This document shows positions 22,742-55,305 of a DNA stretch of 64,000 bases, piece by piece. The stretch is from an uncultured bacterium (GTDB taxonomy: Bacteria; Patescibacteriota; Minisyncoccia; Phycocordibacterales; GWA1-40-21), in the NCBI GenBank assembly GCA_903831305.1, contig CAIKXE010000011.1, positions 12,002 to 76,001 of the forward strand, in the 5' to 3' direction. Below the pieces are notes generated by a model, which was given only the letters and a program-made list of their open reading frames with translations, did no database searches and was not told the origin of the DNA. How positions within the stretch are numbered: position 1 is the stretch's first letter; the number at the start of each line of letters is the position of its first letter. A program made the position numbers and the translations under genes.

Positions 22742-23410
22742 ATGAAGGAATCTTTAATAAATAAATTAATTCTAATCTCTAAGAATCGGCAAGTAAAAAA
22801 TGATCCATCTCATGACTTTCAACATGTTCAGCGAGTATTAAATCTTGCTGTTGAGATTGGTAAAAAAGTTGAAGCAGATCTTGATATTGTCATTCCTGCG
22901 GCCTTATTTCATGATACGGTTGTTTATCGTAAAGACAGTCCGAAGAGTAAATATGAGACCGATGAAAGTGCTGAAGTTGCTGGTCATATTTTAAAAAAGA
23001 TTCGCGAGTATCCAAAAGAAAAAATCGAAAAAGTAAAGATCTGTATTAGACAGTGTTCTTTTTCTAAGGGTATTATTCCTGATATTTTGGAGTCAAAAGT
23101 ATTACAGGATGCTGATATGCTTGAATCTACTGGAGCCATATCAATTATGCGTACTTTTTCGTCCGGTGGACAAATGAATCGTCCATTCTATGATTTAAAT
23201 GATCCTTTTTGCAAAAAAGGTTTATTCGGAGTACACTCAGGATTGTGGTTGTTTTATAAAAGGTTGTTACTTGTTGAAAAAAGAATGCATACAAAATTTG
23301 CTAAAAAGATAGCAAAAAGAAGGACTAATTTTCTGATAACTTTTCTAGATGAATTTAAAAAAGAGCTTATTGAAACCGAAATAATTTATGAAAAAAGAAG
23401 ATCTAGATAA
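22742..23410 (+). CDS. HD-domain phosphohydrolase
   Basis: H...HD signature: HDFQHVQRV, AALFHDT, LQDADMLE. Confidence 0.7.
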   Translation: MKESLINKLILISKNRQVKNDPSHDFQHVQRVLNLAVEIGKKVEADLDIVIPAALFHDTVVYRKDSPKSKYETDESAEVAGHILKKIREYPKEKIEKVKICIRQCSFSKGIIPDILESKVLQDADMLESTGAISIMRTFSSGGQMNRPFYDLNDPFCKKGLFGVHSGLWLFYKRLLLVEKRMHTKFAKKIAKRRTNFLITFLDEFKKELIETEIIYEKRRSR

Positions 23411-24263
23411 CACTGGTAATCTGTGTGATAAATTGGACCTTGTTGGAGAAAACAGACGGCAGGATGCTGAAAAAATTATAAAAATAGTAGAACACGAAAA
23501 GGAATCGTGGAATAATATATTTGAGGAGGAATTAAAAAATATAGATAATGTAAATTATTTATCTTACTGGTGGAGTGATCATTATTGCCAGATTGTAGAA
23601 TATATAGATAAATCCATAAAGTTTAAATGTACACCATCAATTTTGGAAGCTGGGTGTGGCTCTGGTCAATCAACTCTTCAGTTGTCAACAAAAACAAAGT
23701 TGATATCACTTTTGGATATTTCACCAGTTGCACTTGATTTAGCTAAAAAACTTTCAAAAATATACAATAAAAATAATGTCGAATTTATAGAGGGTAATAT
23801 TTTATCTATGCCATTTAAAGACAAGGAATATGATCTTACCTGGAATATTGGCGTTTTGGAGCATTACGATAAAACATTGATTCCTTATTTGCTAAAGGAA
23901 ATGATTAGGGTAACAAAAGATGGTGGTTATATAGCAATAGGAATACCTAATCCAAAGTCTTTGGCTATAAAAAAAGCTAAATTTCTCGCAAACGAGAAGT
24001 TAAAAAATCTTTTAAAATTTATCCCTGGTTATAGACTAGATACTGAAAATTTATATTCAGCTAAAGAGGTAGAAGAGATTCTTTTTGAAGTTAGTAGAAA
24101 AATAGGGCTTAAATTAAGTGAAATAAAAGTAACCCACGTAGGTAGTCCTTTGTTAGTGTGGTCTCCTAAATTTCTTATTAAGTTTTTTAAAATTTTTGAA
24201 AAATTTGAATTTATAAAAAAAAGAAAGTTTCTAATATTGATAATTGCTAAAATTAATTATTAA
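23388..24263 (+). CDS. class I SAM-dependent methyltransferase
   Basis: Motif I ILEAGCGSGQSTLQL followed by LLDISPVALDLA. Confidence 0.75.
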   Translation: MKKEDLDNTGNLCDKLDLVGENRRQDAEKIIKIVEHEKESWNNIFEEELKNIDNVNYLSYWWSDHYCQIVEYIDKSIKFKCTPSILEAGCGSGQSTLQLSTKTKLISLLDISPVALDLAKKLSKIYNKNNVEFIEGNILSMPFKDKEYDLTWNIGVLEHYDKTLIPYLLKEMIRVTKDGGYIAIGIPNPKSLAIKKAKFLANEKLKNLLKFIPGYRLDTENLYSAKEVEEILFEVSRKIGLKLSEIKVTHVGSPLLVWSPKFLIKFFKIFEKFEFIKKRKFLILIIAKINY

Positions 24264-24269
24264 AATATC

Positions 24270-25727
24270 GTGGCAAACTATTTCAACAAATTTATTAAAA
24301 TTGCAGAAATTAATAAAGATAATGTTGCTATTATCTATCCTATTTATAAAGATGGGATAAATAATGGATGTATAAAATATTTATATATAGATATAATCAA
24401 TCATATTCTATCAGCCGGGCCTATTATCTATAAAACAAATATTAAAAAAAATCCTGTTGGCTTATTTATTCCGAACCATCCATTATTTACGTCTGCACTT
24501 ATTAGCGTCTTATCGCAGGATTTTATTGCCGTTCCGATTAATCCAAAATCAACAAAGGAAATAATTTTAAAAATAATATCTGATAATAATTTAGACGTAA
24601 TTATTACTGATAATCATTATTATCAATATTTGATTGGTATCTGTTCCACTAATCAGGTTATTCTAAAAATAGGTGATATAATTTCGACACCTTCTTTTCA
24701 AAAAATCCCTAAAAGTCAGAAAAAATCTGGTGATATTGCAATTATCTCTTACACCAGTGGTACCTCAGGTAACCCCAAAGGGGCATTAATTACAAACAAG
24801 AATATACTATTTGTAACAATGAAATACTGTAGTATCTATCGTCTTGATAAAAACAGCCATGTATTAGCTGCTCTGCCTCTTTGGCATAATTACGGGACAT
24901 TTGATGTTTTGCTGGATACACTCATTAGTGCAGGAACTATTGTCTTAATGGATGATTGGGTAAGTAAAAAAGCGATTGATATAATACATAAGTACAAAAT
25001 TTCTGTATTTCCTGGTTTCCCATTTATGTTTATGGATATTGTTAATGATGATTCCAGAGAATTAGATTTTTCAACTTTAAAAGTTTGCGAGTCAGGCGGA
25101 TCTGGATTACCTCGCAGATATATTGAGCGGTTTAAGAAAAAGACAGGTATAGTTATAACTGAAGGTTACGGTTCAGCAGAAACCACGTCTCTTACACATA
25201 TAAATAATCTAACTGAGACCAGAAGAGCTGGAAGTATTGGTGAAAATATTCCTGAAGCTTTCTGTAAAATACTAGACCAAGGGGGGAGGAGAGTTAAAAC
25301 TGGTGAATGTGGAGTATTGTGGGTTCGTGGTCCAATGGTTTGTAAAGGTTATTCTAATCTTAAGTCAAACAGTTTTAATGGAAAATGGTTTAATACTGGG
25401 GATATTGCTTGTCTTGATTCGAACAATAATTATTGTGTCGTCGGTAGATTAGATAATACTAAAAAGGTTGATACTGATATTGACTCATATTCAACCAGCG
25501 TCGGGGAAATTTTGTACGAATTTGATGGCTTAATTAAATTTAACATTAAAAAAAAGGCAGGAAATAATTTAGATTATTTGTACGTTGTTTTAAAAGATAA
25601 TAGACGAAGAGCTGATTTCAGAGATTTTTTGAAAAGTAAATTTGATAAAGGTAGGTTCTACAAAATAGTTTTTGTAAAAGATATTCCAATCACGGCAACT
25701 GGTAAAATTAAGCATAGTCTTTCTTAA
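24270..25727 (+). CDS. AMP-dependent synthetase/ligase (adenylate-forming enzyme)
   Basis: AMP-binding motifs ISYTSGTSGNPKGA, TEGYGSAETT, NTGDIA and the C-terminal GKIKH lysine. Confidence 0.85.
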   Translation: MANYFNKFIKIAEINKDNVAIIYPIYKDGINNGCIKYLYIDIINHILSAGPIIYKTNIKKNPVGLFIPNHPLFTSALISVLSQDFIAVPINPKSTKEIILKIISDNNLDVIITDNHYYQYLIGICSTNQVILKIGDIISTPSFQKIPKSQKKSGDIAIISYTSGTSGNPKGALITNKNILFVTMKYCSIYRLDKNSHVLAALPLWHNYGTFDVLLDTLISAGTIVLMDDWVSKKAIDIIHKYKISVFPGFPFMFMDIVNDDSRELDFSTLKVCESGGSGLPRRYIERFKKKTGIVITEGYGSAETTSLTHINNLTETRRAGSIGENIPEAFCKILDQGGRRVKTGECGVLWVRGPMVCKGYSNLKSNSFNGKWFNTGDIACLDSNNNYCVVGRLDNTKKVDTDIDSYSTSVGEILYEFDGLIKFNIKKKAGNNLDYLYVVLKDNRRRADFRDFLKSKFDKGRFYKIVFVKDIPITATGKIKHSLS

Positions 25728-25884: not shown

Positions 25885-27357
25885 ATGTATTTAATATCAC
25901 AGACAACAGGTATAACAACGTTATTAATTTTTGGATTAGTAATGATAGTCATTGTTTATTTTCTGACAAGAAAGCAATTTAACTCCAAAGATGCTTTCTT
26001 GGTGGCAAGACGTGAGGTTGGCTGGCTTCGTGGATCCTTAAGTATTGCTGTAAGTTGGATCTGGGCCCCAGCAGTTTTTATCGCTTCAATGCAGGCCTAC
26101 AATCAAGGTATAGCTGGAGCTTTCTGGTTTATTGTACCTAATGTTGTCTGTTTTTTTGTTTTTGCACCTTTGGCGATTAGGTTAAGGAGGTTTTTACCAG
26201 AAGGATATACCTTGCCGCAGTTTATTTTAAAAAGGTATGATAATGATAAAAAAACTCATTTAGCTTTTCTGGTACTATTTTTTGGTTATCAATTAGGTGC
26301 AATTATTATTAACACATTAGCTGCCGGAGTCTTGTTAAATGCTTTGACTGGCATCAGTTTTTATCTTGTCGTCTCATTGATAATGGTTTTGGTATTAATA
26401 TATGCAATAATGAGTGGTTTAGAGGCTTCAATAATTACTGATGTTATTCAAATGGCAATGGTTCTGCTATTTTGTTTTATTCTAGTCCCGTGGGTAATTA
26501 TAAAAGCCGGTGGCTTTTCTGCAGTTACTGGAGGGTTTGGTGGTATAACTGGAATGTTTGGTAATGTGTTTAACCCTTGGATTGCCTATTCCTTTGGTAT
26601 AGCCACAACACTAAGCTTAATCTCTGGTCCAATTGGTGATCAAATGTTTTTTCAGAGAGTTTATGCTTCAAAAAAAGAGCAAATTGTTAAAACTTTTGTC
26701 GCTGGCGGTTTAATTTTTGGATTAGTTCCAACTATCTTGTGTCTCTTAGGTTTTATCGCAGCCAATCCACATTTTAGTTCCCTTATTACCGTTGCAGATC
26801 CTCAAATGGTGGGACCAGTTGTTATTGGTTATTTCTTACCAAAGATAGCATTAGTGGCGTTCCTTTTTATGGCCTTTGCAGCTTTGGCATCCACTATTGA
26901 TAGTGCATATTGTGCGATAAGTTCATTAGGTACAATAGATATTTATAGAAAATATTTTAATCCGGAAGCTAGTGATAGACAATTGCTAAGTATGTCACGT
27001 AAGGTCATGTTGGCTATGGCACTACTTGGTACTGGAATAGCCCTACTTCAACCTAAGCTTTTATGGGTCTTCTTAATTTATGGTGCTTTAGCATCAGCCG
27101 GTTTTTTCCCAACAGTTTTCAGTCTATATTGGAAAAAATTAAACAAACAAGGAGTGTTTTGGGCAGTTACGCTTTCTTTAATTATCGGTTTACCTCTTTC
27201 GATATATGCCAATATTACAGAGAATGTGAACCTTATTGTGTTGGCGTCAATATTAAGTGTGGTTATCGGATTAATTACTTGTTTGATAGCTGGTTTCTTA
27301 AATAAAAAAACTGTATACAACTTTGCAAGTGGTGAAATCGAGGCAGTTGTCGAATAA
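25885..27357 (+). CDS. multi-pass permease, sodium:solute symporter-like (tentative)
   Basis: About 12-13 hydrophobic helices with G/A-rich TM packing. Family assignment is by overall resemblance only. Confidence 0.45.
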   Translation: MYLISQTTGITTLLIFGLVMIVIVYFLTRKQFNSKDAFLVARREVGWLRGSLSIAVSWIWAPAVFIASMQAYNQGIAGAFWFIVPNVVCFFVFAPLAIRLRRFLPEGYTLPQFILKRYDNDKKTHLAFLVLFFGYQLGAIIINTLAAGVLLNALTGISFYLVVSLIMVLVLIYAIMSGLEASIITDVIQMAMVLLFCFILVPWVIIKAGGFSAVTGGFGGITGMFGNVFNPWIAYSFGIATTLSLISGPIGDQMFFQRVYASKKEQIVKTFVAGGLIFGLVPTILCLLGFIAANPHFSSLITVADPQMVGPVVIGYFLPKIALVAFLFMAFAALASTIDSAYCAISSLGTIDIYRKYFNPEASDRQLLSMSRKVMLAMALLGTGIALLQPKLLWVFLIYGALASAGFFPTVFSLYWKKLNKQGVFWAVTLSLIIGLPLSIYANITENVNLIVLASILSVVIGLITCLIAGFLNKKTVYNFASGEIEAVVE

Positions 27358-27358
27358 A

Positions 27359-28336
27359 ATGAAAAAAATTCTTTTGATAGGTCTAGGCGGTACAATAGCT
27401 TGTTCGGCCACTAAAGAAGGTTTAGTCCCGATGTATTCGCCTGAAAGGTTTCTTTCTCAAGAACCCAGACTTTTAACGGTTGCTCATATAAAGACTATTC
27501 AGTTGATGATGAGGACCATTATCTACCCTAAGGACTGGATAACTATTGCCAAATTCATATCAAAGTCCGTTAAAGATTTTGATGGTTTTGTGATAACGAT
27601 GGGAACAGATACTCTAGCTTATACTTCCTCGATGTTGTCTTTTATGCTTAGAAGTATCAATAAACCTGTAATTATAACCGGGGCCATGATTCCGATCGAG
27701 AAGGAAAATTCTGATGCTAGGAAAAATCTGATAGACAGCGTTATATTCGCCTGTGAACCAACCTCAGGAATTTTTGTTGTCTTTAATGGTAACGTTATCA
27801 GGGGGTGCCGAGCGTCCAAAGTGTCTGGAGTAGAAATTGACGCGTTTAAGAGTATTAATTTTCCTTTGATCGCAAAGATTATTAATGGACAAGTCAAATA
27901 TGATTTATCAATAAAAGAAGAAATTAGAGAAAATAATAAACTCTCTTTAGAGGTAAAAATCGATACAAAAGTATTGGATATTAAGCTTACCCCACAGGTA
28001 GAGCCAGATTTATTTGGGAAGCTTTTAGGTTACAAAGGTTTTGTAATTGAAGGGTATGGTGACGGCAATATATCTGATAATTTAATTCCAGTGATTATAA
28101 AACTAATTAAGGGAGGGAAAGTGGTAGTTTTAGCGTCTCAATGTGCTTACGGCCATGTAGAGCATAAATATAGAGGTGGTCTTATGGCGGTGAAGAATGG
28201 TGCAATTTCGGTCAGAGACATGACTAAGGAAAGTGCCCTTACTAAATTGATGTGGTGTATGGGAAAGACGAAGAATGTAAAAACCATAGGTAATATGATG
28301 ACTAGTAATATGTGCGGCGAAATTAAGATAATATAA
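27359..28336 (+). CDS. L-asparaginase (type I-like)
   Basis: ILLIGLGGTIACS (TGGTIAG motif) and VITMGTDTLAYTSS (HGTDT motif). The ATG at 27359 is preferred over the track start at 27323, which overlaps the upstream gene. Confidence 0.8.
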   Translation: MKKILLIGLGGTIACSATKEGLVPMYSPERFLSQEPRLLTVAHIKTIQLMMRTIIYPKDWITIAKFISKSVKDFDGFVITMGTDTLAYTSSMLSFMLRSINKPVIITGAMIPIEKENSDARKNLIDSVIFACEPTSGIFVVFNGNVIRGCRASKVSGVEIDAFKSINFPLIAKIINGQVKYDLSIKEEIRENNKLSLEVKIDTKVLDIKLTPQVEPDLFGKLLGYKGFVIEGYGDGNISDNLIPVIIKLIKGGKVVVLASQCAYGHVEHKYRGGLMAVKNGAISVRDMTKESALTKLMWCMGKTKNVKTIGNMMTSNMCGEIKII

Positions 28337-28340
28337 ATAT

Positions 28341-28982
28341 ATGAGATTGTATTTATCATCATTTAAAATAGGAAATCACCCAGAGAGATTAGCTGATTTA
28401 ACTGATGGTGGTAAGAAAGCGGTCTTTATCGTTAATGCTTTGGATTATAAGTTGGAATCTCGAAATAAATTTTTAGCAAGCGAAATCCAAATGCTTGGTG
28501 AGTTAGGTTATGATGTTGAAGAATTGGATTTGAGGATGTGGTTTGGCAAGAAAGAAAAAGATCTTGAAGAATATCTAAGAACAAAGAATCTCGTTTGGGT
28601 TAATGGAGGGAATTCCTTCTTACTTAGAAGAGCTATGAAACAAAGTGGGTTTGATAAAATTATAACTAAGCTTCTGAAAGAGGACGTGATTGTTTATGCC
28701 GGCTTTAGTGCCGGATGTGCTGTCCTTCATAAGGATTTGCACGGAATTGATATAACTGATGATCCATACATCTTAGCCGAAGGATATCATAAGAATGTTG
28801 AATGGGTGGGTCTCGATATTATTGATTTCAATATTGTGACTCATTTTGATTCTAATCAGAATGAGTCAGACGAGTCCAGAAAGGAGATGAAATTTTATAA
28901 AGATAATAATATACCATTTAAGACATTACGTGACGGTGAGGTCTTAATCGTTAATGGCAAAAATGTAGAAATAATAAAATAA
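28341..28982 (+). CDS. S51-family peptidase (dipeptidase E/cyanophycinase-like)
   Basis: VWVNGGNSFLLRR and VYAGFSAGCAV (Ser nucleophile context). Confidence 0.7.
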   Translation: MRLYLSSFKIGNHPERLADLTDGGKKAVFIVNALDYKLESRNKFLASEIQMLGELGYDVEELDLRMWFGKKEKDLEEYLRTKNLVWVNGGNSFLLRRAMKQSGFDKIITKLLKEDVIVYAGFSAGCAVLHKDLHGIDITDDPYILAEGYHKNVEWVGLDIIDFNIVTHFDSNQNESDESRKEMKFYKDNNIPFKTLRDGEVLIVNGKNVEIIK

Positions 28983-28983
28983 T

Positions 28984-30216
28984 ATGAGATACATAGTTAC
29001 CAAAAATAAACAGATAAAAAAAAGAATGCGCTCTTTTAACGAATATTATTCATTATTAAGAGAGGCAATAGTTAGCGGTAATCTCAAAAGTTCATTAGAC
29101 CGTGGTGCTTTTACGCATCCAAAACAAATCTTAAATCGTGAAATTATAAATTCTCTTGGTCTAAAAAGACATAGGATTTCTTTAGGTTATGGTCAAGAGG
29201 TTGGAGAAGATATCGTCAGAGAAAAGATTGTCGAACGAGAGAATCTTATTCATGGTACAGATTATAATCTAGAAAATGTAACGGTGGTTGCTGGGGCATG
29301 GTTTGGTGTTGAGGTTGTTATTGAGGAAATTACACAAAAATATGCAAATAAGAAACCAAAAATTGCTGTAATTGGCCCCACTCATTATCAGTTGTTCCAA
29401 AGACCAATTGAAGTCCTCGGTTTGGAGGTAATAGGTTTTGACTTCGTAAATTTTAAAGGTAGTACTCCTAAGACAAAGGAAGAAATTGATCAGATATTAA
29501 AATGTAAGCCAAACGTTGTTTTTGTTACTAATCCTAATAATCCAATTGGAGAATATTTTCCATCAAATTTACTTAGGTATCTTATCTCAACATGTAAAAA
29601 GAGGAAAATATTTGTCATTATTGATGAAATGCAGAATTTTTTAGCTACAGATGGTAAAGGAATAAATTATGGAAAATGGATAAAAGCTAAAAATGTTATC
29701 CGTATAGATTCTTTTTCAAAGCATTATGCTTTGGCAGAATATCGCGTTGGATGGGTTATTGCTGATAAAAGTATTATTGGTAGCAGATATACTGGAATCA
29801 CACAACATGTAAGAGGCTTGATGGGTAATGCTCCAAGGGCCGCGAATGATGCCATTGTAAAATTATTAGACTTTGAGATAAACGAGATTAGAAATAAAAT
29901 AGAGCATCCTCTGGGACGAAGAATTAAGCTGTTGTATAAAAAAGAGGATTTTATAATTAAACTTCTTTCTAAGAACCCAAGAATAGAAATAATACATAGA
30001 GATGCCTGTTTTAATTTGACCGTCAGAATAAAAGACTTTCCAAGTGATATAGAAATGTCGAGACGATTGATGAACCGTGGTACTCTAATTATGCCATGCA
30101 CTGGTTATGGGTATCGAACTGAGGACGTGGTTATGAGGATAACTTTTGCGGAAAGATGGAGTAGAATAAAGCATTCCATGGCAGTTCTGACTAGTATATT
30201 GAATGAAAAAAAATGA
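28984..30216 (+). CDS. PLP-dependent aminotransferase, class I/II
   Basis: DSFSKHYALAEYRVGWVIA, the S-x-S-K...R-x-G PLP-lysine motif. Confidence 0.75.
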   Translation: MRYIVTKNKQIKKRMRSFNEYYSLLREAIVSGNLKSSLDRGAFTHPKQILNREIINSLGLKRHRISLGYGQEVGEDIVREKIVERENLIHGTDYNLENVTVVAGAWFGVEVVIEEITQKYANKKPKIAVIGPTHYQLFQRPIEVLGLEVIGFDFVNFKGSTPKTKEEIDQILKCKPNVVFVTNPNNPIGEYFPSNLLRYLISTCKKRKIFVIIDEMQNFLATDGKGINYGKWIKAKNVIRIDSFSKHYALAEYRVGWVIADKSIIGSRYTGITQHVRGLMGNAPRAANDAIVKLLDFEINEIRNKIEHPLGRRIKLLYKKEDFIIKLLSKNPRIEIIHRDACFNLTVRIKDFPSDIEMSRRLMNRGTLIMPCTGYGYRTEDVVMRITFAERWSRIKHSMAVLTSILNEKK

Positions 30217-31607
30217 AAGAAAAAGTTTGGATAAAATTTTATGAAGGAGGTGTCTTAAGGGAAGAATTGACCTTTATACAAGCTGAAGAAAGAATTAAGG
30301 CAAAAGTCGCTGAATTGTCTCAACTTGGTATTGAGAATGGGGATCGTGTTGTAATTAGACTACCTAATTCACCTCTGTGTGTTATAACATATTTGGGAAT
30401 ATACCGTTTGGGTGCCGTAGCTGTTCCCGTCGGTCTATTGGAGGATCAGATTAGGTTGAATTTTATAATCTCTGACTCCGGATCAAAAGCAATAATTGAT
30501 AATTCTGGTATTAAGATCTTACCTTTAAAATCTTTGAATAATAAAATAAAGAGTGTCTGTACGATAATTTATACTTCTGGGACGACTGGTACGCCTAAGG
30601 GTGTATGTTTAAATTGGAATAACTGGGTGAAGAATGCAGAGTCGTTAATTAAGCACCATCATATTAATGAAAATACGGTTTTTGCGAGTCCTCTTTTTTT
30701 GTCGCATTGTAACGCTCATGGTTTGGCAATGATCACTACATATATCTCGAAATGTACGTGGATATTGTTTGATAAAAGTCCGAAAAATATCTTGGAAATA
30801 ATTTCAAAAGAAAAAGTACGTATTCTTAGTGTGGTCCCGTCCATTTTATATGATATTTATAATTCAAATAAAAATTGGAAGCCAAATAAAGAACTTCGGT
30901 ATATCATAACCGCGGCTGCGCCACTGAGCCCCGATCTGTTACAAAGCGTTATGGATACTTGGAAGACTAGGGTAATTCAAGGTTATGGTCTCTCAGAAAG
31001 TACTAATTTTTCATGTACTATGCCGACCAATCTAAGTGAAAAGGTATATAAACAGGTAATGTTTCCATGGCCATCTATTGGTGTGGCATTAAGTGGAGTT
31101 AAAATAAAGATAGGTCGTAAAAATAAAGAGGAAGAATTGGGGGAATTATTTATATCATCAAAATCAAACTTTAGTGGATATTGGAATAAAGATAAGATCA
31201 AACTAAGGCCGACTATTCATACGGGCGATTGGGGTTATTACAAAACTATAGCACGAAAAAGATACTTTTATTTTAAGGGAAGAATTAAGGAAATAATAAA
31301 TAGGGGTGGTGAAAAAATTAGTCCAATTGAATTGGAATATGAGTTAAGAAAAAATGGCTTGAAGGGAGAATTCGCTATAATATCATTGCGTAGTGAAAAA
31401 TATGGTGAAGAAGTTGGCCTTGCAGTTTGCAAACATTTTGATCTGTCGTTAATCGAGAAGATACCAAGATATCGTAGACCAAAACAGGTATTTCTTCTAA
31501 AGACTCTCTTTTATACACCGAATGGTAAATTACAAAGGAGGAAAATTTCAGAATTTTGTTGTAATAGTAAAGCTGAAATACTAATTAACCCGGATCCATT
31601 GACTTAA
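30213..31607 (+). CDS. AMP-dependent synthetase/ligase (second adenylate-forming enzyme)
   Basis: IIYTSGTTGTPKGV, QGYGLSEST, HTGDWGY, PNGKLQRR. Confidence 0.85.
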   Translation: MKEKVWIKFYEGGVLREELTFIQAEERIKAKVAELSQLGIENGDRVVIRLPNSPLCVITYLGIYRLGAVAVPVGLLEDQIRLNFIISDSGSKAIIDNSGIKILPLKSLNNKIKSVCTIIYTSGTTGTPKGVCLNWNNWVKNAESLIKHHHINENTVFASPLFLSHCNAHGLAMITTYISKCTWILFDKSPKNILEIISKEKVRILSVVPSILYDIYNSNKNWKPNKELRYIITAAAPLSPDLLQSVMDTWKTRVIQGYGLSESTNFSCTMPTNLSEKVYKQVMFPWPSIGVALSGVKIKIGRKNKEEELGELFISSKSNFSGYWNKDKIKLRPTIHTGDWGYYKTIARKRYFYFKGRIKEIINRGGEKISPIELEYELRKNGLKGEFAIISLRSEKYGEEVGLAVCKHFDLSLIEKIPRYRRPKQVFLLKTLFYTPNGKLQRRKISEFCCNSKAEILINPDPLT

Positions 31608-31654: not shown

Positions 31655-32980
31655 ATGTACATTAACAAGCCACCCATAACGGTGGCAGAAAGGGAGTGTT
31701 ATATGTGGCAGATAAAGGTTCTTCTTGAGAAGTTCGTGTCGTTACTTGGTGTCGAAGTCAAGGTACGTGGACGGATCATCTCGATTCGTCGAATGAAGAG
31801 ATCAGTATTCGCTGATCTTTTTTCCATCGACTCGAAAGTACAATGTCGCTTTGATCCGGCAGGCGGTCTCTGCCCGAACAATGGCGACTTGGTTGAGGTC
31901 GTTGGGAAATGTGTTGTGTCAAAGAGTGGTGAATCGACGATTGACGTCTCAAGCGTAGTGGTTGTGGGCAAATGGTCTGCTAACATCGACTTTAAGGAAG
32001 TGTCGAATGGCGGATCTAGTCCACTTCTGGCTTTCATGCCAGGGGCGTATGGTCGCTTCCACTACTCACAGGTCGCTAGAAACCAAGTGAGGACATTCTT
32101 GACTTCCGAGGGTTATTTCGAGGTTCAGACCCCAATTCTTGGAAGGAATTACAACGGAGGTAGATCCTTTCCTGTATCGAGCTTTTGTTCTGGTAACAGG
32201 ATTGGTTTCAACAGAACGACGGTGGAAGATCGCATGCAAGCATTGATTGCAATGGGGTACGAAAGAGTTTTCCAGGTCGGTAGTGTGTTTCGTAGCGGAA
32301 AGGAATTAACCTTCCTCGAAGGGTACGAAGCATTCACTGAATGGGAAGCCGGCAAATGTCGTATCAAGCAGTTGCTTGCATCTGTAGTAGAAAAGCTCAT
32401 TCAAAGCGGAATCGGGAGTCCAAATGACACATCCGACCACCTGATTGGTTGTGATTGGTTAGAAGTGGATTTCCTTGACAGTGTGAGTGAGTCGACTAAG
32501 GTGTCGTCACAGCAGATAATGGAGGTAGACAGTACTCTTGCTGGATTTCTCAGAGATAGAGGGGTCATTAAGGAGGAAGAAGTATCGCCAGAAACCATCG
32601 CCGACGAACTGGCTAATCTTGTCGCCGAGGCGACGGGTGTGCCAACGATAGTCAATGGTTTTCCGGTCTGGTCATCTCCGTTGTATGCATTAAGTGAGGA
32701 TGGTGGTGAACGACTCGTTCGTAGTCGCATGTACATTCCAGGTCAAAAGGGTGGGTTTGAAATAGGTATGCAGGAAAACAATTACGAGAGATTTACTGAA
32801 AGGATTTCCCGACAGCGAAAGATGTGGAATTTGGCTACTGATGACGACCGAGTGAGAGAGTCGGATCTCTCTACGGTTATATCAGGTGGCTTACCACCAA
32901 CCTTTGGCTACGGGCTCAGTCCAGACAGACTCGTAAAGATATGGCGTCAGGATTGCAGTAATGACCCATATCGTGAGTAG
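31655..32980 (+). CDS. class IIb aminoacyl-tRNA synthetase paralog (AsnRS/AspRS/LysRS-like) with N-terminal OB-fold and apparently shortened motif-2 loop; GC-rich, compositionally foreign
   Basis: OB-like VEVKVRGRIISIRRMKRSVFADL. Motif 1 GYFEVQTPIL. Motif 2 core VFQVGSVFRSG-KELTFLEGYEAF lacks the ~8-aa ...RH..EF... loop. Motif 3 GGLPPTFGYGLSPDRLV. GC is visibly far above the flanks. Confidence 0.65.
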   Translation: MYINKPPITVAERECYMWQIKVLLEKFVSLLGVEVKVRGRIISIRRMKRSVFADLFSIDSKVQCRFDPAGGLCPNNGDLVEVVGKCVVSKSGESTIDVSSVVVVGKWSANIDFKEVSNGGSSPLLAFMPGAYGRFHYSQVARNQVRTFLTSEGYFEVQTPILGRNYNGGRSFPVSSFCSGNRIGFNRTTVEDRMQALIAMGYERVFQVGSVFRSGKELTFLEGYEAFTEWEAGKCRIKQLLASVVEKLIQSGIGSPNDTSDHLIGCDWLEVDFLDSVSESTKVSSQQIMEVDSTLAGFLRDRGVIKEEEVSPETIADELANLVAEATGVPTIVNGFPVWSSPLYALSEDGGERLVRSRMYIPGQKGGFEIGMQENNYERFTERISRQRKMWNLATDDDRVRESDLSTVISGGLPPTFGYGLSPDRLVKIWRQDCSNDPYRE

Positions 32981-33102
32981 GTGTTTCTCGAAGGTTTGAG
33001 AACCCATCCATGAAGCCGCCGAGGTTACACTCGGCGGCTCTTTCATCATTTATAAATATTTTTTCGCTTTCTTTTTATGTTTTTTTATGTTTAGATAGTT
33101 GT

Positions 33103-33507
33103 ATGTTGAACGATATTTTAACTATTTCAATCTCAGAGAAGTATATCGGTAGTAGTGGGTGTGTGAATCGCACTCATTATCTGAACTTACTTATGGAAGC
33201 ACAAAATATTTCTTTGATTAAGCACAAAATAAGTTTTGATGATATTGAGAAAAAAAATAATATACATTTTGTTCAAAGAGCATTTTCTATTGAATTTATT
33301 AAGCCTTTATTTCTGAATGATGAGGTCGTTATAAAAATATCAATACCCACACTTGGTTTGTCCAGTTTTGTATTAAAACAAGAGATTACAAAAAATAATC
33401 AAATTGTAACAACTGCCCAGACCGTGTATGTTGCCGTTGACAACTCAAAGAATAAAATATTATTACCTGATAGTATTCGAACTTTATTTTCATTAAAAAA
33501 GGGGTAA
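33103..33507 (+). CDS. hotdog-fold acyl-CoA thioesterase-like protein (tentative)
   Basis: From the internal ATG at 33103 (MLNDIL...). VNRTHYLNLLMEA resembles 4HBT/YbgC thioesterases. The upstream part of the track ORF (33010-33102) is hydrophobic junk adjoining the GC-rich gene. Confidence 0.45.
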   Translation: MLNDILTISISEKYIGSSGCVNRTHYLNLLMEAQNISLIKHKISFDDIEKKNNIHFVQRAFSIEFIKPLFLNDEVVIKISIPTLGLSSFVLKQEITKNNQIVTTAQTVYVAVDNSKNKILLPDSIRTLFSLKKG

Positions 33508-39290: not shown

Positions 39291-39670
39291 TTGATTTATA
39301 GATTAATAATAAATTTACACGAGGGACTAACTCGTGTGCTATGAGGATCTATATCGACCTGATTCTCATTGATATAGTTTTAAATGGTTTGTGGTGATAA
39401 TTTAAAAGGGGGTATGGGGGGGGCTGTCTGATTTGTTCCATGGCCGGTAGCGGGTGGATAGGGGGAAACGACCCTATTTGTGTCCTGGGCTACTATTTTA
39501 AAAAAGGTGGGGGGTTGTTTCAAAAGTGTGTCTCCATAAAATTTCTGCCGGAATTTTTGGAAAAGGACGTTTGCCTTATTTTGACTTTGGAGCTATGATT
39601 ATGGAGTCGGAAAAATTGAATAAATAGTAATCTAAATCAGAGAGTAAAATCTCTGACATGATGAAAAAAT

Positions 39671-39777
39671 CTGCAACAGTTTAAAGAACCCAGCATATGG
39701 GGCTACTGTTGCAGTCATATCGGGAAACCGGTATGGAGGGCCACAAGCTCTCACCTATGTGCTGGGCTTTTTGCGTC
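39671..39777 (+). ncRNA. structured RNA candidate (leader/riboregulator or sRNA) ending in intrinsic terminator
   Basis: Perfect 10-bp stem ctgcaacagt/actgttgcag. A 7-bp GAAA-tetraloop hairpin atatcgg-gaaa-ccggtat. Long-range cccagcatatg/tatgtgctggg pairing followed by ctttttg. Confidence 0.4.
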
Positions 39778-39790
39778 TAAAAATTAAAAC

Positions 39791-41803
39791 ATGCAAACAT
39801 TAAATCTTGATAATATTGAGACAATAATCGGCCACTGGGGAGAATTTAAAACAAATGCTCTGGAGCTTTTGGACAGGATGTTAGAATCATACCCAAATAA
39901 TGTAATTTTGTTACAGAATAGAGGATCCGTCTTAAATGACCGTGGTGAATTTCAAGAAGCAATAAATAATTCCGATAAATTGCTAGAGATTGATAGTCAA
40001 AATATAACGGCATTAAATAGTTTGGGGTATGCGCTGAGAAAGCTTGATAGGAATCAAGATGCAATTAGGATTCTTGATGAAGCACTTAAAATAGACCCTC
40101 AGAATTTAAATGCTCTAAACAATAAAGGTGTTGCTCTCAGTAATATGAATAAAAATCAGGAGGCTATCGAATTATATAATGAGATTCTAAAAATTGACCC
40201 GAGTTTTGAATATGCACTAAATAATAGAGAATATGCTCAAAAAAGTCTAAAAAAAGATAGCATTTTTTTAGGGAGTGATTTTGAGAATGCTATAAATCTA
40301 ATGAATGAAACGAACGGTAATCTATTTTTAACGGGTAGTGCTGGTACTGGAAAATCTACAGCAATTGAGTATTTTAGAAAAAAAACAAAGAAAAAAATTG
40401 TGATTCTAGCACCGACAGGTGTCGCCGCTTTAAATGTCGGGGGTGAAACGATCCATTCATTTTTTCATTTTGGCATCGATATTACCCCAGATTCTGTTAA
40501 AAAAAATGATTTGCTAAACCAAGGTAACGATATTTACAGGAATATAGACACAATAGTAATAGATGAAATATCAATGGTCAGGGCTGATTTGATGGATTGT
40601 GTAGATAAATTCATGAGGCTTAATGGTAAGGATGCTAATAAACCTTTTGGCGGTGTGCAGATTATACTTGTTGGTGATCCGTACCAGCTTCCACCAGTTG
40701 TCACAAAAGATGAAGAAGAACTATTCACTTCATATTATAAAAGCCCATATTTTTTTGATTCAAAAGTTTTTAGTCAAGCAGCATTCTTGTTTGTTGAGCT
40801 TAAAAAAATATATCGACAAAATGATTTGAAATTTATACAAACATTGGAAGCTTTTCGTCTTGGTCAATTTACTGGGAGTCATTTAGAATTGATAAATACG
40901 AGGTATTCAAGCCAGGCCTTATCTGAGCACGATTTACATATTAATCTTGTATCAACCAATGCTGTGGCAGATGCAATTAATAATAAAAGGCTTTCTAAGT
41001 TATCAACTAAACAATACATATCCACAGCTATGGTAACTGGAAGGTTTGATAGGAATCCACCAGCAAATAAAGAGCTACTTATTAAGGAGGGGTCAAAAAT
41101 AATGTTGTTAAAAAATGATCCGGGTGATAGGTGGGTTAATGGTGATCTTGGTGAAATAGTCAGTATTAAAGAAGAAAATAGTCAGATAAAAGAAATTGTA
41201 ATAAAGCTTGATGATAAATCGGAACATATTATCAATCGTATAACTTGGGAAAAAATCAAATTTTTTTACAACAGAAATACTAAATCGATTGAAACAGAGG
41301 TTATAGGCACCTTTACTCAATTTCCTATAAAATTAGCCTGGGCGGTTACGATCCATAAAGGTCAAGGTAAAACATACAAAAATATGGTTGTGAATTTTGG
41401 AAGAAGAACTTTTGCTCATGGGCAAGCATACGTAGCAATAAGTAGGTGTCAAAGCTTAGGTGGCTTATTTCTCACTACTCCATTAAGAAAGGATGATGTT
41501 TTAATTGACAAAAGAGTGTGCGAATTCATGGAAAGTAATATCTGTTCTGAAAAAGTAAACTCTAAGTCTCCAGAAAATGAACTAATGGGTCTCGTAGAAA
41601 GACAGGGGCAAGAATTAGGAGAATTTAGAAAGTTTTTTTCTGACATCGCACCACTCCTAGATAAACTAGATAAGAGTCCTGAAATTGTACAGGCGATTAT
41701 GAATGGAAGAATAACAACAGACATAGCTAAAGCTCTCACTGAAGATAATTTAAATCCTAAAGAAGCCCCAGAAAAAATTAATCCCAATGACATTCCGTTT
41801 TAA
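39791..41803 (+). CDS. TPR-repeat domain fused to PIF1/RecD-like SF1 helicase
   Basis: N-terminal TPR-like repeats (NLNALNNKGVAL...). Walker A LTGSAGTGKST. Walker B IVIDEISMV. ILVGDPYQLPPV, AVTIHKGQGKTY, YVAISRCQS. Confidence 0.8.
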   Translation: MQTLNLDNIETIIGHWGEFKTNALELLDRMLESYPNNVILLQNRGSVLNDRGEFQEAINNSDKLLEIDSQNITALNSLGYALRKLDRNQDAIRILDEALKIDPQNLNALNNKGVALSNMNKNQEAIELYNEILKIDPSFEYALNNREYAQKSLKKDSIFLGSDFENAINLMNETNGNLFLTGSAGTGKSTAIEYFRKKTKKKIVILAPTGVAALNVGGETIHSFFHFGIDITPDSVKKNDLLNQGNDIYRNIDTIVIDEISMVRADLMDCVDKFMRLNGKDANKPFGGVQIILVGDPYQLPPVVTKDEEELFTSYYKSPYFFDSKVFSQAAFLFVELKKIYRQNDLKFIQTLEAFRLGQFTGSHLELINTRYSSQALSEHDLHINLVSTNAVADAINNKRLSKLSTKQYISTAMVTGRFDRNPPANKELLIKEGSKIMLLKNDPGDRWVNGDLGEIVSIKEENSQIKEIVIKLDDKSEHIINRITWEKIKFFYNRNTKSIETEVIGTFTQFPIKLAWAVTIHKGQGKTYKNMVVNFGRRTFAHGQAYVAISRCQSLGGLFLTTPLRKDDVLIDKRVCEFMESNICSEKVNSKSPENELMGLVERQGQELGEFRKFFSDIAPLLDKLDKSPEIVQAIMNGRITTDIAKALTEDNLNPKEAPEKINPNDIPF

Positions 41804-44134: not shown

Positions 44135-44214
44135 GTTAATAGGTATGCTATATTTTACCTATGTTAATAAGGGTGGGGAACTGTTCCTATCTTAATAACA
44201 CCTCAAACATTGTC

Positions 44215-45717
44215 ATGGAAAATAAATACAAAGCGACAATAGGGCTGGAAATACATGCGGAGATGAAGACCAAAACAAAGATGTTTTGTGCTTGTAAAAA
44301 CAATCCGGATGAGGATAAACCCAATGTAAATATCTGCCCCATCTGTACCGGTCAGCCGGGGACCTTGCCGGTGATAAATAAGCAGGCGGTAAAGAATGTG
44401 CTGAAAATGGGAGTGGCGCTAGGGGCTAAATTGGCGGATTTTACGGAGTGGGATCGGAAGAATTACTTTTATCCAGATATTCCAAAAGGGTATCAGATCA
44501 GTCAGTATAAATATCCGCTTATCACCGGCGGTAGACTAAATGGTATAAATATCACTCGGGTGCATTTGGAGGAGGACACGGCTAAGTCCAGTCATGATCA
44601 AGGGGAGTTTTCACTAGTGGATTTTAACCGAGCTGGGGTGCCTTTGATGGAGCTCGTGACTGAGCCAGAGCTACATAGTGGTAAGGAGACGGCGGATTTT
44701 GCGCGTGAGCTTCAGTTGCTTTTACAATATTTAGGCGTGGGCGATGCGAATATGGAGAAAGGTGAGATGCGTATTGAAGCCAATATCTCCGTCAGTACCA
44801 CGGACAAGCTGGGTACTAAAGTGGAAGTAAAAAATATAAACTCTTTCAAGGCGGTGGAAAAGGCGGTGGCTTATGAAATCGACCGCCATATTCAGGTACT
44901 TGAAGGTGGTGGTAAAATAGTGCAGGAGACCAGGGGTTGGAATGAAGATAAACAAATCACTTTTACCCAGCGTCTAAAGGAGGATTCTCATGATTACCGC
45001 TATTTCCCTGATCCGGATTTGCCAAAGATGAAGATTTCCGAGATGACTGAATTTTCTGCAGAGAATTTGAGTAAAGAACTGCCAGAATTACCTTGGCAGA
45101 AGCGGGAGCGCTATGAAAAGGATTATGGTATAAAGGCGGTGGATGTAGAGATATTTGTTCGTCCCGGAATTATCAGTTCCTTCTTTGAAAAAGTGTGTGC
45201 GGATTTTGCGGGTGATACCCGTCCGACCGAGTCATCCGGGCGGGAAAACTTAATTAAATTAGCTTCAAACTACATTATTTCAGACTTGTTAGGTTTGATG
45301 AAAAATGTATCAGAAAAAGTCGGGGAGAATCCTCTCCGCTTAACGGAGTACCTAATCGCTCCGAGGAATCTCCCCGGCTTTTTAACAGATAAAGATTTTG
45401 CTAATCTGATAAAGATGGTAGCAGAGGCCAAGATTTCTTCTCGTGGCGCCAAGGATATTTTAAAGATTATGTTTGAACAGGGTGGAAGTCCGGCTGAGAT
45501 TGCGGAGAAAGAGGGTTTACTTCAAAAGAGTGATTTAGGTGAATTAGAAAAGATTGCGGAGAAGATTATTACAGATAATCCCAAAGTAGTGGCAGATTAT
45601 AAGGCCGGTAAGGAAGCCGCTCTGATGTCACTTGTTGGCCAGGGGATGAAGGCCACTAAAGGCTCTGGTAATCCGGTGGTTTTGAAGGAATTGTTTTTGA
45701 AATTGTTGGTCAAATAG
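44215..45717 (+). CDS. gatB: Asp-tRNA(Asn)/Glu-tRNA(Gln) amidotransferase subunit B
   Basis: MENKYKATIGLEIHAEMKTKTKMFC is the canonical GatB N-terminus. The C-terminal YqeY-like tail is present. Start set at the internal ATG 44215. Confidence 0.85.
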   Translation: MENKYKATIGLEIHAEMKTKTKMFCACKNNPDEDKPNVNICPICTGQPGTLPVINKQAVKNVLKMGVALGAKLADFTEWDRKNYFYPDIPKGYQISQYKYPLITGGRLNGINITRVHLEEDTAKSSHDQGEFSLVDFNRAGVPLMELVTEPELHSGKETADFARELQLLLQYLGVGDANMEKGEMRIEANISVSTTDKLGTKVEVKNINSFKAVEKAVAYEIDRHIQVLEGGGKIVQETRGWNEDKQITFTQRLKEDSHDYRYFPDPDLPKMKISEMTEFSAENLSKELPELPWQKRERYEKDYGIKAVDVEIFVRPGIISSFFEKVCADFAGDTRPTESSGRENLIKLASNYIISDLLGLMKNVSEKVGENPLRLTEYLIAPRNLPGFLTDKDFANLIKMVAEAKISSRGAKDILKIMFEQGGSPAEIAEKEGLLQKSDLGELEKIAEKIITDNPKVVADYKAGKEAALMSLVGQGMKATKGSGNPVVLKELFLKLLVK

Positions 45718-54503: not shown

Positions 54504-55088
54504 ATGGCCACGAAGTTTGTGTACCTGCAAGGGGAGGATAGAGAGTTTTTGACTGATCTGTGCCAAGGGATGTATCTGGACGGTTCCTGCTACATCTTTG
54601 CCTTGGCCATGCATCGTGCCCTGGGCTGGCCGATCATCGGTCTCATGGAGGGACGCACTATCCGGCATGCTCTAGTGAGGCACCCCGGTGGTAAGCTCTG
54701 GGATGTCCGTGGGCCGGTGCCGGAGGAGATGGCGGTTGCCCCGTTTGGTCTCGCCACCTATGACTTCTCAGAAGTGGCCGAGGCCGAGCTCGTTACCCTC
54801 TGTCATGGTGAGGAGCACGTGGAGTACAAGGTAGAAATGGCCGAGAGGATGGCCCAGTCCCTGTGGCCGAACTTGCCCTGGAAGTCCAGTCAAAAGGAAC
54901 GTCTTCAGGAGTTTGCGGATGGGCTGGAGGAGTTGTCCAGGCGGACAGGGGTTTGGATTCGCAGTCCGGTGCCTGGTTGCCCGCCTGTTCTCGCCCCTGG
55001 TCTGGGGGATGAGGGCGGCTACCGGCTGAGTCAGATGCCCGTCCCCCAAGGCTACACAATAGACCGGTACTTCCCGGCCTTGATGTAA
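54504..55088 (+). CDS. hypothetical protein encoded in GC-rich foreign segment
   Basis: 194-aa ORF in a ~0.6-kb stretch that is far more GC-rich than the window. Codon usage is unlike its neighbours. No motif. Confidence 0.45.
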   Translation: MATKFVYLQGEDREFLTDLCQGMYLDGSCYIFALAMHRALGWPIIGLMEGRTIRHALVRHPGGKLWDVRGPVPEEMAVAPFGLATYDFSEVAEAELVTLCHGEEHVEYKVEMAERMAQSLWPNLPWKSSQKERLQEFADGLEELSRRTGVWIRSPVPGCPPVLAPGLGDEGGYRLSQMPVPQGYTIDRYFPALM

Positions 55089-55194: not shown

Positions 55195-55279
55195 GGAGAG
55201 ATGCGAGAGTGGTTTAATCGACAGACCTGGAAAGTCTGCGTGGGGCAACCCACCAAGGGTTCGAATCCCTTTCTCTCCG
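55195..55279 (+). tRNA. tRNA-Ser (anticodon GGA)
   Basis: Acceptor ggagaga/tctctcc. 3-bp D stem. Anticodon stem cagac/gtctg with loop cuGGAaa. Long variable arm. T arm aaggg-ttcgaat-ccctt. No CCA encoded. Confidence 0.8.
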
Positions 55280-55305
55280 CAATTTTTAGTGATATTATGT
55301 AGGTT

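Follow-up and report, generated by a model that had tools for sequence, protein, structure and literature searches.

KRSL, a family of LysRS-derived proteins with a deleted motif-2 loop in Patescibacteria, and its possible dependence on tRNA-Lys

Paralogs of aminoacyl-tRNA synthetases (aaRSs) have repeatedly revealed new biology, as in the cases of AsnA, HisZ, EpmA, the cyclodipeptide synthases, AcmF and SbzA. Here we describe a paralog of lysyl-tRNA synthetase (LysRS) encoded in a 64,000-nucleotide stretch of DNA from an uncultured member of the Patescibacteriota (contig CAIKXE010000011.1 of assembly GCA_903831305.1), the whole of which we refer to as the window. The gene is an ORF at 31655..32980 on the plus strand that specifies 441 aa, recognised through Pfam matches to tRNA-synt_2 and the OB fold and through an AlphaFold2 (AF2) model, and it is the window's member of a LysRS-like paralog family for which we use the working name KRSL. 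Its signature is the deletion of the motif-2 loop together with the retention of tRNA contacts, and it sits in a conserved operon associated with LysRS, whether class I or class II, and with genes of lysine biosynthesis.

Among the systems closest to KRSL are the aa-tRNA-dependent aminoacyl transferases AcmF (AlaRS-like) and SbzA (IleRS-like), aaRS-derived proteins that have kept tRNA-recognition elements, have lost residues for ATP binding and activation, are encoded beside a real aaRS and act in small-molecule pathways. AcmF, a class II AlaRS-like protein, keeps a tRNA-recognition domain, lacks the residues for ATP binding and activation, and takes its Ala-tRNA from AcmD, an AlaRS homolog of the same cluster, in which the hydrolase AcmE opposes the AcmF reaction (PMC12945691). 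KRSL differs from both in that its parent is LysRS, its ATP site is only partly eroded, and it occurs mainly in the reduced genomes of the candidate phyla radiation (CPR) rather than in Streptomyces antibiotic clusters.

A 2022 review names only LysU, PoxA and LysX as LysRS paralogs (PMC9437257); our literature searches found no prior description of the KRSL family, which is a fourth, structurally distinct and previously undescribed derivative of LysRS. KRSL shares the OB and class II core fold and motifs 1-3 with class II LysRS (LysS/LysU; TIGR00499, NF001756), but has no N-terminal helix, carries a new conserved C-terminus (IDPYxE) and occurs alongside canonical LysRS. LysX, a LysRS-MprF fusion, also combines LysRS-type chemistry with lysyl transfer to a non-tRNA acceptor, but it consists of a canonical LysRS fused to a GNAT-fold transferase, and KRSL has no such domain (its match to NF002821, at 72.9 bits, covers the LysRS part only).

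Neither AsnA nor EpmA, class IIb paralogs that work independently of tRNA, still has the OB anticodon domain. EpmA (PoxA/GenX), which β-lysylates EF-P, is like KRSL a LysRS paralog with a non-translational role; in addition to lacking the OB domain, it differs from KRSL in having an intact motif-2 loop and in keeping its adenylation chemistry. KRSL scores 44.5 bits against the EpmA model TIGR00462 (cutoff 286.9), the EpmA chains in the PDB (325-345 aa) align to its catalytic core only, and the KRSL loci contain no EpmB/lysine 2,3-aminomutase gene and an EF-P gene in a single case (L003, ~7 kb away). AsnA and archaeal AS-AR are also class IIb-derived and also act in amino-acid metabolism, but they descend from AspRS, are ATP-dependent and lack the OB domain; the AsnA family is absent from the Pfam and NCBIfam matches of KRSL, whose pocket shows the LysRS-type E-x-Y. 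Similarly, the core of KRSL is LysRS-like and not SerRS-like as in the amino-acid:carrier-protein ligases. HisZ, finally, is another aaRS paralog with reduced catalytic residues that is encoded with biosynthesis genes for its cognate amino acid, but it has lost its anticodon domain and has one fixed partner, whereas KRSL keeps its tRNA-reading domain and its partners vary.

Ancestry and active site of the KRSL family

KRSL matches Pfam tRNA-synt_2 at 54 bits, with a weak, sub-threshold match to the OB fold. Its top NCBIfam models are those of LysRS (NF001756, 108 bits against a cutoff of 468; TIGR00499, 92 against 427.6), while AspRS and AsnRS models reach 29 bits at most, and its top PDB sequence and fold matches are all class II LysRSs (TM 0.72-0.75, ~20% identity). 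Because LysRS thus ranks first in the NCBIfam and PDB comparisons, KRSL is, as judged from sequence and fold matches, a descendant of class II LysRS specifically and not of a generic AsnRS/AspRS/LysRS type. An earlier note on this DNA, made from the sequence alone, had proposed a class IIb aaRS paralog distinct from the housekeeping synthetase, which holds and can now be narrowed to class II LysRS descent. The same note had pointed to GatB, and hence to the indirect route to Asn-tRNA; GatB is indeed encoded in the window (44161-45717), but the LysRS ancestry removes the bearing of that route on KRSL and rules out an AsnRS/AspRS or GatB connection.

Among 5.8 billion proteins searched, 38 relatives of KRSL scored 209-998 bits, after which scores dropped sharply, ordinary LysRSs reaching no more than 75 bits, and an exhaustive hidden Markov model scan of 1.84 billion representatives clustered at 50% identity found only ~25 clusters above 270 bits. 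On these similarity scores KRSL is a discrete, sharply delimited family of LysRS paralogs. Its members belong mostly to Patescibacteria/CPR, with organism labels that comprise Falkowbacteria, Shapirobacteria, Parcubacteria, Saccharibacteria, one uncultured bin and one "Woesearchaeota" bin; a few distant members lie on GC-rich contigs.

The OB fold and motifs 1-3 that the earlier note had recognised are all present, including the characteristic proline of motif 1 and the arginines of motifs 2 and 3. The OB-fold anticodon-binding domain spans aa 34-105 (31754..31969, plus strand, as are all features of the gene given here), with R40, R45, F52 and Q63 invariant. Motif 1 (FEVQTPIL, with invariant P160) lies at aa 152-162 (32108..32140) and motif 3 (GGLPPTFGYGLSPDRL, with R425) at aa 412-427 (32888..32935), both placed by alignment. 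Between them, motif 2 forms a truncated hairpin at aa 204-226 (32264..32332), in which R213 and the E222/Y224 pair are kept, the stacking phenylalanine is replaced by leucine and seven loop residues are missing.

The shortening of the motif-2 loop had been proposed with profile alignment named in advance as the test that could refute it, and such alignment shows that the loop is not intact. A pairwise phmmer alignment of KRSL with Bacillus stearothermophilus LysRS (3a74) places a 7-residue gap between FRS and GKELTFLE, so that KRSL reads FRSG-KELTFLE where LysRS reads FRNEGISTxHNPEFTMLE. The same gap appears when a profile of 32 family members is compared with five solved LysRSs, in all 37 members of a MAFFT alignment that also includes nine canonical LysRSs, and in all 12 of a further, more distant set. 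In the AF2 model built from the family alignment (mean pLDDT 90.4, pTM 0.86), strand 204-213 passes through a two-residue turn directly into strand 216-226. The alignments thus indicate that the loop deletion defines the whole family; it is also, to judge from the alignment, the founding event, with the other losses coming later, because the deepest branch has the deletion and yet keeps the stacking phenylalanine and the glutamate.

Which functional residues have been kept and which lost can be read against the roles assigned in the cryo-EM study of human LysRS with tRNA-Lys3 (PMC11643047), with KRSL positions mapped by motif spacing and frequencies counted in the 37-member alignment. The residues that read U35/U36 of the anticodon (human R136, F144, Q155 and E195) are retained as R45, F52 and Q63, all invariant, and as E93 in 33/37 members. 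The A76 pocket (P471, L472, F512 and Q515) is represented by invariant P342, L343 and Q387 and an aliphatic residue at 384, α-amino binding (E301, E339) by invariant E191 and E222, and the tyrosine wall of the lysine pocket (Y341) by Y224. Also retained are the motif-2 arginine (R323; R213 in 36/37), the motif-3 arginine (R553; R425 in 33/37) and one acidic Mg2+ ligand (LysU E421; E/D369).

Among the residues lost, the motif-2 glutamate that binds C74 (E325) is E or D in only 20/37 members, and the segment with the C74/C75-binding residues G326, D328 and H331, the last of which also stacks on the adenine, is deleted; E325 and H331 are described as invariable in LysRS (PMC11643047). The adenine-stacking phenylalanine (F335) is L, R, N, K or H in the CPR branch, and the position of a Mg2+ ligand (LysU E414) is occupied by arginine (R358) in 32/37. 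This arginine belongs to a remodelled "RFE...GxE..NGFSE" segment at aa 356-375 (32720..32779), marked by a 4-residue insertion and a 3-residue deletion; the deletion takes out the second aromatic wall of the pocket (Y499) and the preceding asparagine, and the ε-ammonium-binding glutamate (E501) is replaced in the CPR branch by invariant Q373, beside invariant E374, the deepest branch having glutamate. Overall, the aligned residues describe a pattern in which contacts to the anticodon, A76 and the α-amino group are kept and contacts to the ATP adenine and to C74/C75 are lost. Residues newly invariant in the family are N167, S171, T189, S214, W339, Y344, Q373, E374, W391 and the C-terminal IDPY; because many of these fall at active-site positions (N167, S171, T189, W339, Y344, Q373 and E374), they point to an active site rebuilt for a changed function and not to decay.

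Candidate functions

Our favoured reading, in which our confidence falls short of even, is that KRSL is a neofunctionalised class II LysRS paralog and vertically inherited operon member that works as a tRNA-Lys-dependent enzyme like AcmF, not as a free adenylating enzyme. KRSL would still grip tRNA-Lys at the anticodon and at A76, and what it binds would probably be Lys-tRNA-Lys made by a neighbouring LysRS of either class. It would hold the α-amino acid moiety, would no longer carry out standard ATP-dependent activation, and would transfer or present the lysyl group carried on the tRNA to a small molecule as acceptor. The acceptor may be imported by the transporter encoded nearby and tailored by the neighbouring aminotransferase and adenylating enzyme, and the S51 peptidase and thioesterase of the cluster could act as hydrolytic or proofreading partners.

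As in clusters of the AcmF/SbzA type, a cognate aaRS is encoded close to KRSL in many loci, which we label L001 to L019/L020 (with L009 = L001, L005 = L004 and L014 = L010 as pairs). A canonical class II LysRS directly adjoins KRSL in L003, L004/5, L008, L010/14, L012 and L013, and a class I LysRS adjoins it or lies in the divergent operon in L015 and L019. In L015, KRSL directly follows the class I enzyme (PF01921, 360 bits) in a lysC-asd-lysK-KRSL operon, which is followed by a multi-pass membrane protein that has no family match and lies opposite dapA, dapB and a genuine lysA. An obligate heterodimer of KRSL with class II LysRS is unlikely, since the class I enzyme has an unrelated fold; its adjacency argues instead for a link of KRSL to lysine or tRNA-Lys. 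The suggestion in the earlier note of an aaRS-like enzyme that does not charge tRNA survives in part: the protein is non-canonical, but independence of tRNA is doubtful. The evidence points to continued use of tRNA-Lys, since the family keeps its OB domain, the residues that read U35/U36 and the pocket for A76, and has lost those that bind the adenine.

Several observations weigh against a tRNA-Lys-dependent transferase. The ATP site has been lost only in part: the motif-2 and motif-3 arginines and the acidic ligand at E/D369 are still in place, and the deepest branch (P0058, P0060 and P0061), which has the loop deletion, retains the stacking phenylalanine and the glutamate, so that adenylation may survive. 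The residues that bind C74/C75 are gone, so that canonical docking of the CCA end is compromised as well, and the conservation of the anticodon-reading R/F/Q and of Q387 could partly be a structural constraint common with LysRS. In the Saccharibacteria loci L011 and L012 an ABC importer lies directly upstream of KRSL in place of the aminotransferase and the ANL-type adenylating enzyme (with LysRS directly downstream in L012), and because both enzymes are missing there, the building of an acceptor by them is not universal. Moreover, no LysRS was found beside the cassette in the window's own clade (L001, L006 and L007) or anywhere in the 64-kb window.

The first of the alternatives is an ATP-dependent, tRNA-independent adenylating enzyme or ligase of the AsnA, EpmA or carrier-protein-ligase kind, whose substrate would be a lysine-like amino acid, possibly diaminopimelate (DAP) or a lysine modified at Nε, and whose acceptor would be an amine or a thiol. 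We consider this unlikely, although the features just listed speak for it (the two arginines, E/D369, a glycine-rich motif 3 and the stacking phenylalanine of the deepest branch), as does the removal of acceptor-end contacts with the truncated loop. An ε-pocket enlarged and neutralised by the NGF deletion, the Glu to Gln change and R/K170 could suit a bulkier or acidic side chain, and lysA or DAP-pathway genes lie nearby in L015 and L016. Against this reading, KRSL, unlike AsnA and EpmA, keeps an OB domain with invariant base-reading residues; the equivalents of His331 and Glu325 are lost, the stacking phenylalanine is unconstrained in the CPR branch, and a carrier-protein gene is absent from 15 loci.

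A second alternative, to which we give only a small chance, is a non-catalytic sensor or regulatory subunit resembling HisZ or the HisRS-like part of GCN2, which on binding lysine, uncharged tRNA-Lys or both would regulate its partner enzymes, the transporter or lysine supply. That some catalytic residues have gone while contacts to the amino acid and to tRNA remain fits this idea, and so do the start/stop overlap that couples KRSL tightly to its partner genes, its place in the lysC-asd-lysK operon beside lysA, and the transporter that adjoins it in most loci; HisZ provides a precedent for an aaRS paralog that regulates biosynthesis of its cognate amino acid (PMC9437257). Against this, the new invariant active-site residues and the retained R213 and R425 give the pocket a working look, although conservation would be expected of a ligand-sensing pocket too. 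The partners also change with the lineage (aminotransferase with ANL, ABC importer, LysRS of class I or class II), so that a single fixed protein partner is unlikely.

It is improbable that KRSL is a genuine, highly divergent LysRS that still charges tRNA-Lys, whether as a second copy, an antibiotic-resistant copy or the sole LysRS of the window's clade. The architecture is that of a full-length LysRS with anticodon, A76 and α-amino contacts, the window and the loci L001, L006 and L007 offer no canonical LysRS as noted above, and charging tolerates a shortened motif-2 loop in PylRS2 (PMC9976931). Against it stand scores far below both LysRS model cutoffs, the loss of the motif-2 glutamate and histidine described as invariable, of the stacking phenylalanine and of part of the lysine pocket, the presence of a canonical LysRS immediately beside KRSL in at least 8 loci, and family-wide invariant substitutions that imply another function.

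More doubtful still is a pathway in which KRSL would be the tRNA-binding core and the lysyl group or a lysine precursor on tRNA-Lys would be modified by the pyridoxal phosphate (PLP) and adenylating enzymes of the cluster. SepRS/SepCysS, SelA and the transamidosome are parallels for modification on the tRNA. We know of no tRNA-dependent lysine pathway, and the organisms concerned are mostly without lysine biosynthesis. If this reading were true, Lys-tRNA-Lys or a lysine derivative would be reached by a tRNA-dependent route, and such a pathway would form a new category.

In 13 loci the cassette comes without a tRNA gene, save for an unrelated tRNA-Gly gene after KRSL in L011, and the idea that an additional amino acid is genetically encoded through its own tRNA was rejected on this ground. 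An Rfam scan for riboswitches and T-boxes found nothing near the cassette.

Cassette, inheritance and base composition

The earlier note placed the gene in a cluster of adenylating, transaminating and thioesterase enzymes, and Pfam matches of the neighbours agree. The window's gene order is methyltransferase, AMP-binding enzyme 1, transporter, asparaginase, S51 peptidase, aminotransferase, AMP-binding enzyme 2 (AMPb2), KRSL, 4HBT thioesterase and an HD protein, those with coordinates given here all being on the plus strand. The first two, a S-adenosylmethionine-dependent methyltransferase (23388-24263) and an upstream AMP-binding enzyme (24270-25727), are of uncertain cassette membership, though methyltransferases recur in L013, L019 and L020. 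The cassette transporter is a sodium:solute symporter (SSF; 25885..27357), identified by family match and synteny and followed by a type I asparaginase (27323..28336; TIGR00519, 264 bits against a cutoff of 260.5) and a peptidase of family S51 (28341..28982; PepE/cyanophycinase family), which also lies beside KRSL in the very distant L019. A PLP-dependent fold-type I aminotransferase (28984..30216), again identified by family match and synteny, overlaps by 4 nt with the gene for AMPb2 (30213..31607; Pfam, 195 bits), the ANL enzyme that is KRSL's constant partner. Downstream of KRSL lies a 4HBT/YbgC-type acyl-CoA thioesterase (33010..33507), also present in L006. The closest PDB matches of AMPb2 are oxalate-CoA ligase and FadD13. 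We rejected naming a substrate from partner homology as too unspecific, the aminotransferase scoring at most 88 bits with generic matches and the ANL enzyme lying nearest to oxalate-, malonyl- and fatty-acyl-CoA ligases.

The trio of aminotransferase, AMP-binding enzyme and KRSL is found in the window, L001/L009, L003, L004/5, L006, L008, L010/14, L013 and L016, and in L007 the AMP-binding enzyme and KRSL are present with the aminotransferase region disrupted. The stop codon of the AMP-binding gene overlaps the KRSL start in seven related loci. An SSF transporter is usual in trio loci, often with asparaginase and S51 peptidase, and the trio of L016 leads on to genes for a cupin and a LysA-like decarboxylase. 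Even in distant loci similar partners occur: L017 has a DegT aminotransferase directly upstream of KRSL, an AMP-binding enzyme ~700 bp downstream and a hexapeptide acyltransferase beyond, and L019 has DegT, UDP-glucose dehydrogenase and hexapeptide transferase genes, then a divergent operon (methyltransferase, class I LysRS, AMP-binding enzyme and TIM-barrel enzyme), then KRSL with the S51 peptidase. The recurrent themes are thus LysRS of either class, an ANL enzyme, a PLP aminotransferase from one of two unrelated families, an importer and the S51 peptidase.

Two observations concern individual family members. The cassette proteins of L010 (CAYYKU010000015.1), assigned to a "Woesearchaeota archaeon" bin, are 100% identical to those of the JGI metagenome contig L014, and a bacterial-type class II LysRS is present; the archaeal label may reflect a binning error or a transfer between CPR and DPANN. 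The distant members P0054, P0058 and P0061 have N-terminal extensions of 150-180 aa, those of P0058 and P0061 looking alike; none matches a Pfam family, so they offer no informative fusion partner.

The GC content of the gene led the earlier note to propose horizontal acquisition. The contrast with the neighbours is as described: KRSL has a GC content of 0.476 (0.525, 0.421 and 0.482 at the first, second and third codon positions), while the adjoining genes for aminotransferase, AMP-binding enzyme and thioesterase have 0.333, 0.343 and 0.297, respectively, and the 20.4-33.5 kb block without KRSL averages 0.330 (0.275 at third positions, GC3). On the question of similar GC elsewhere in the DNA the answer is divided: KRSL stands out locally but ranks third of the 55 ORFs in the window (z = 1.68), genes before ~42 kb average 0.362 and genes beyond 41.8 kb 0.428, and one ORF (54504-55088) reaches 0.595. 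Because the window is bimodal in this way, the contrast, although genuine, is due equally to the low-GC neighbours and to KRSL itself.

When pairwise identities were compared over 11 loci, KRSL, the ANL enzyme and the aminotransferase each gave the same clades, {window, L006, L007, L001}, {L004, L013, L008}, {L010 = L014}, L003 and L016, and the KRSL identities correlate with those of the adjacent AMPb2 at a Pearson coefficient of 0.96. The closest KRSL to that of the window is in L006 (80% identity, same gene order), followed by L007 (62%) and L001 (55%), and the nearest relatives in general are CPR bacteria with the same cassette. In L006, KRSL has a GC content of 0.447, its cassette partners 0.33-0.35 and the host flanks 0.41-0.49; the corresponding values are 0.489, 0.36-0.37 and 0.42-0.47 in L007, and 0.413, 0.32-0.35 and 0.45-0.53 in L001. 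In all three it is the rest of the cassette, and not KRSL, that is the outlier from the host flanks. No such offset of KRSL is present in the low-GC lineages L003, L004, L008 and L010. The KRSL/AMPb2 pair, although co-inherited, differs in GC by ~7-13 points (9-20 at third codon positions) across four genomes at 55-80% protein identity.

Since the offset is common to orthologs at 80, 62 and 55% identity, it predates the divergence of the clade formed by the window, L006, L007 and L001. By these comparisons the compositional discontinuity is old and shared and KRSL was co-inherited with its partners, and a recent import of the gene alone is not supported. Transfer of this single gene from a GC-richer donor into a native low-GC operon, for which the composition of KRSL against the surrounding cassette speaks, is very improbable and largely refuted by a gene order common to CPR lineages, the congruent distances, the offset that recurs where the flanks are themselves GC-rich (0.41-0.53), and the integrase or recombinase genes beside several cassettes.

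Several cassettes have an integrase (rve) or serine-recombinase gene no more than a few kb away, namely those of L001 (13276-14292), L004 (1484-2812), L013 (1884-3224) and L014 (725-1543). Their proximity, together with the low GC of the cassette relative to the host flanks in L001, L006 and L007, suggests that the whole cassette is mobile. Separately, the SSF transporter of the window (25885-27357) is 87.7% identical to that of L001 (3622-4941), where other cassette proteins are 55-68% identical, which suggests from sequence comparison that the transporter gene was exchanged separately and more recently.

Three antisense ORFs reported within the gene (31699-32037, 32149-32400 and 32401-32736) are present and, as had been supposed, spurious. 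Antisense stop codons occur as often as expected under synonymous codon shuffling, in the window and in most orthologs, so that the ORFs are a by-product of composition and an overlapping gene is ruled out.

Elsewhere in the window, ORF 54504-55088 (plus strand, 194 aa, GC 0.595, GC3 0.70) is the strongest compositional outlier, with a tRNA-Ser(GGA) gene adjoining at 55195-55280; neither a Pfam family nor an Rfam entry matches it, and it has a stronger claim than KRSL to be foreign DNA. A LOOT RNA motif (Rfam RF03000) at 39629-39752 (plus strand; 78.8 bits against a gathering threshold of 46.4) lies directly upstream of a gene for a TPR and PIF1-like helicase protein (39791-41803). At 3958-7974 (plus strand), a 1338-aa fusion of T5orf172, ResIII helicase and Eco57I-type methylase domains looks, from its domain content, like a single-polypeptide restriction-modification enzyme. 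The cumulative GC skew climbs monotonically across positions 1-64000.

Significance for Patescibacteria

Patescibacteria have tiny genomes in which dispensable genes are rarely kept. Because the KRSL family is concentrated in these genomes, its function in these symbionts, linked to lysine or tRNA, is probably an important one. If KRSL is a true Lys-tRNA-dependent transferase, it would extend the principle of AcmF and SbzA to a third synthetase lineage, and would carry it into primary or symbiotic metabolism.

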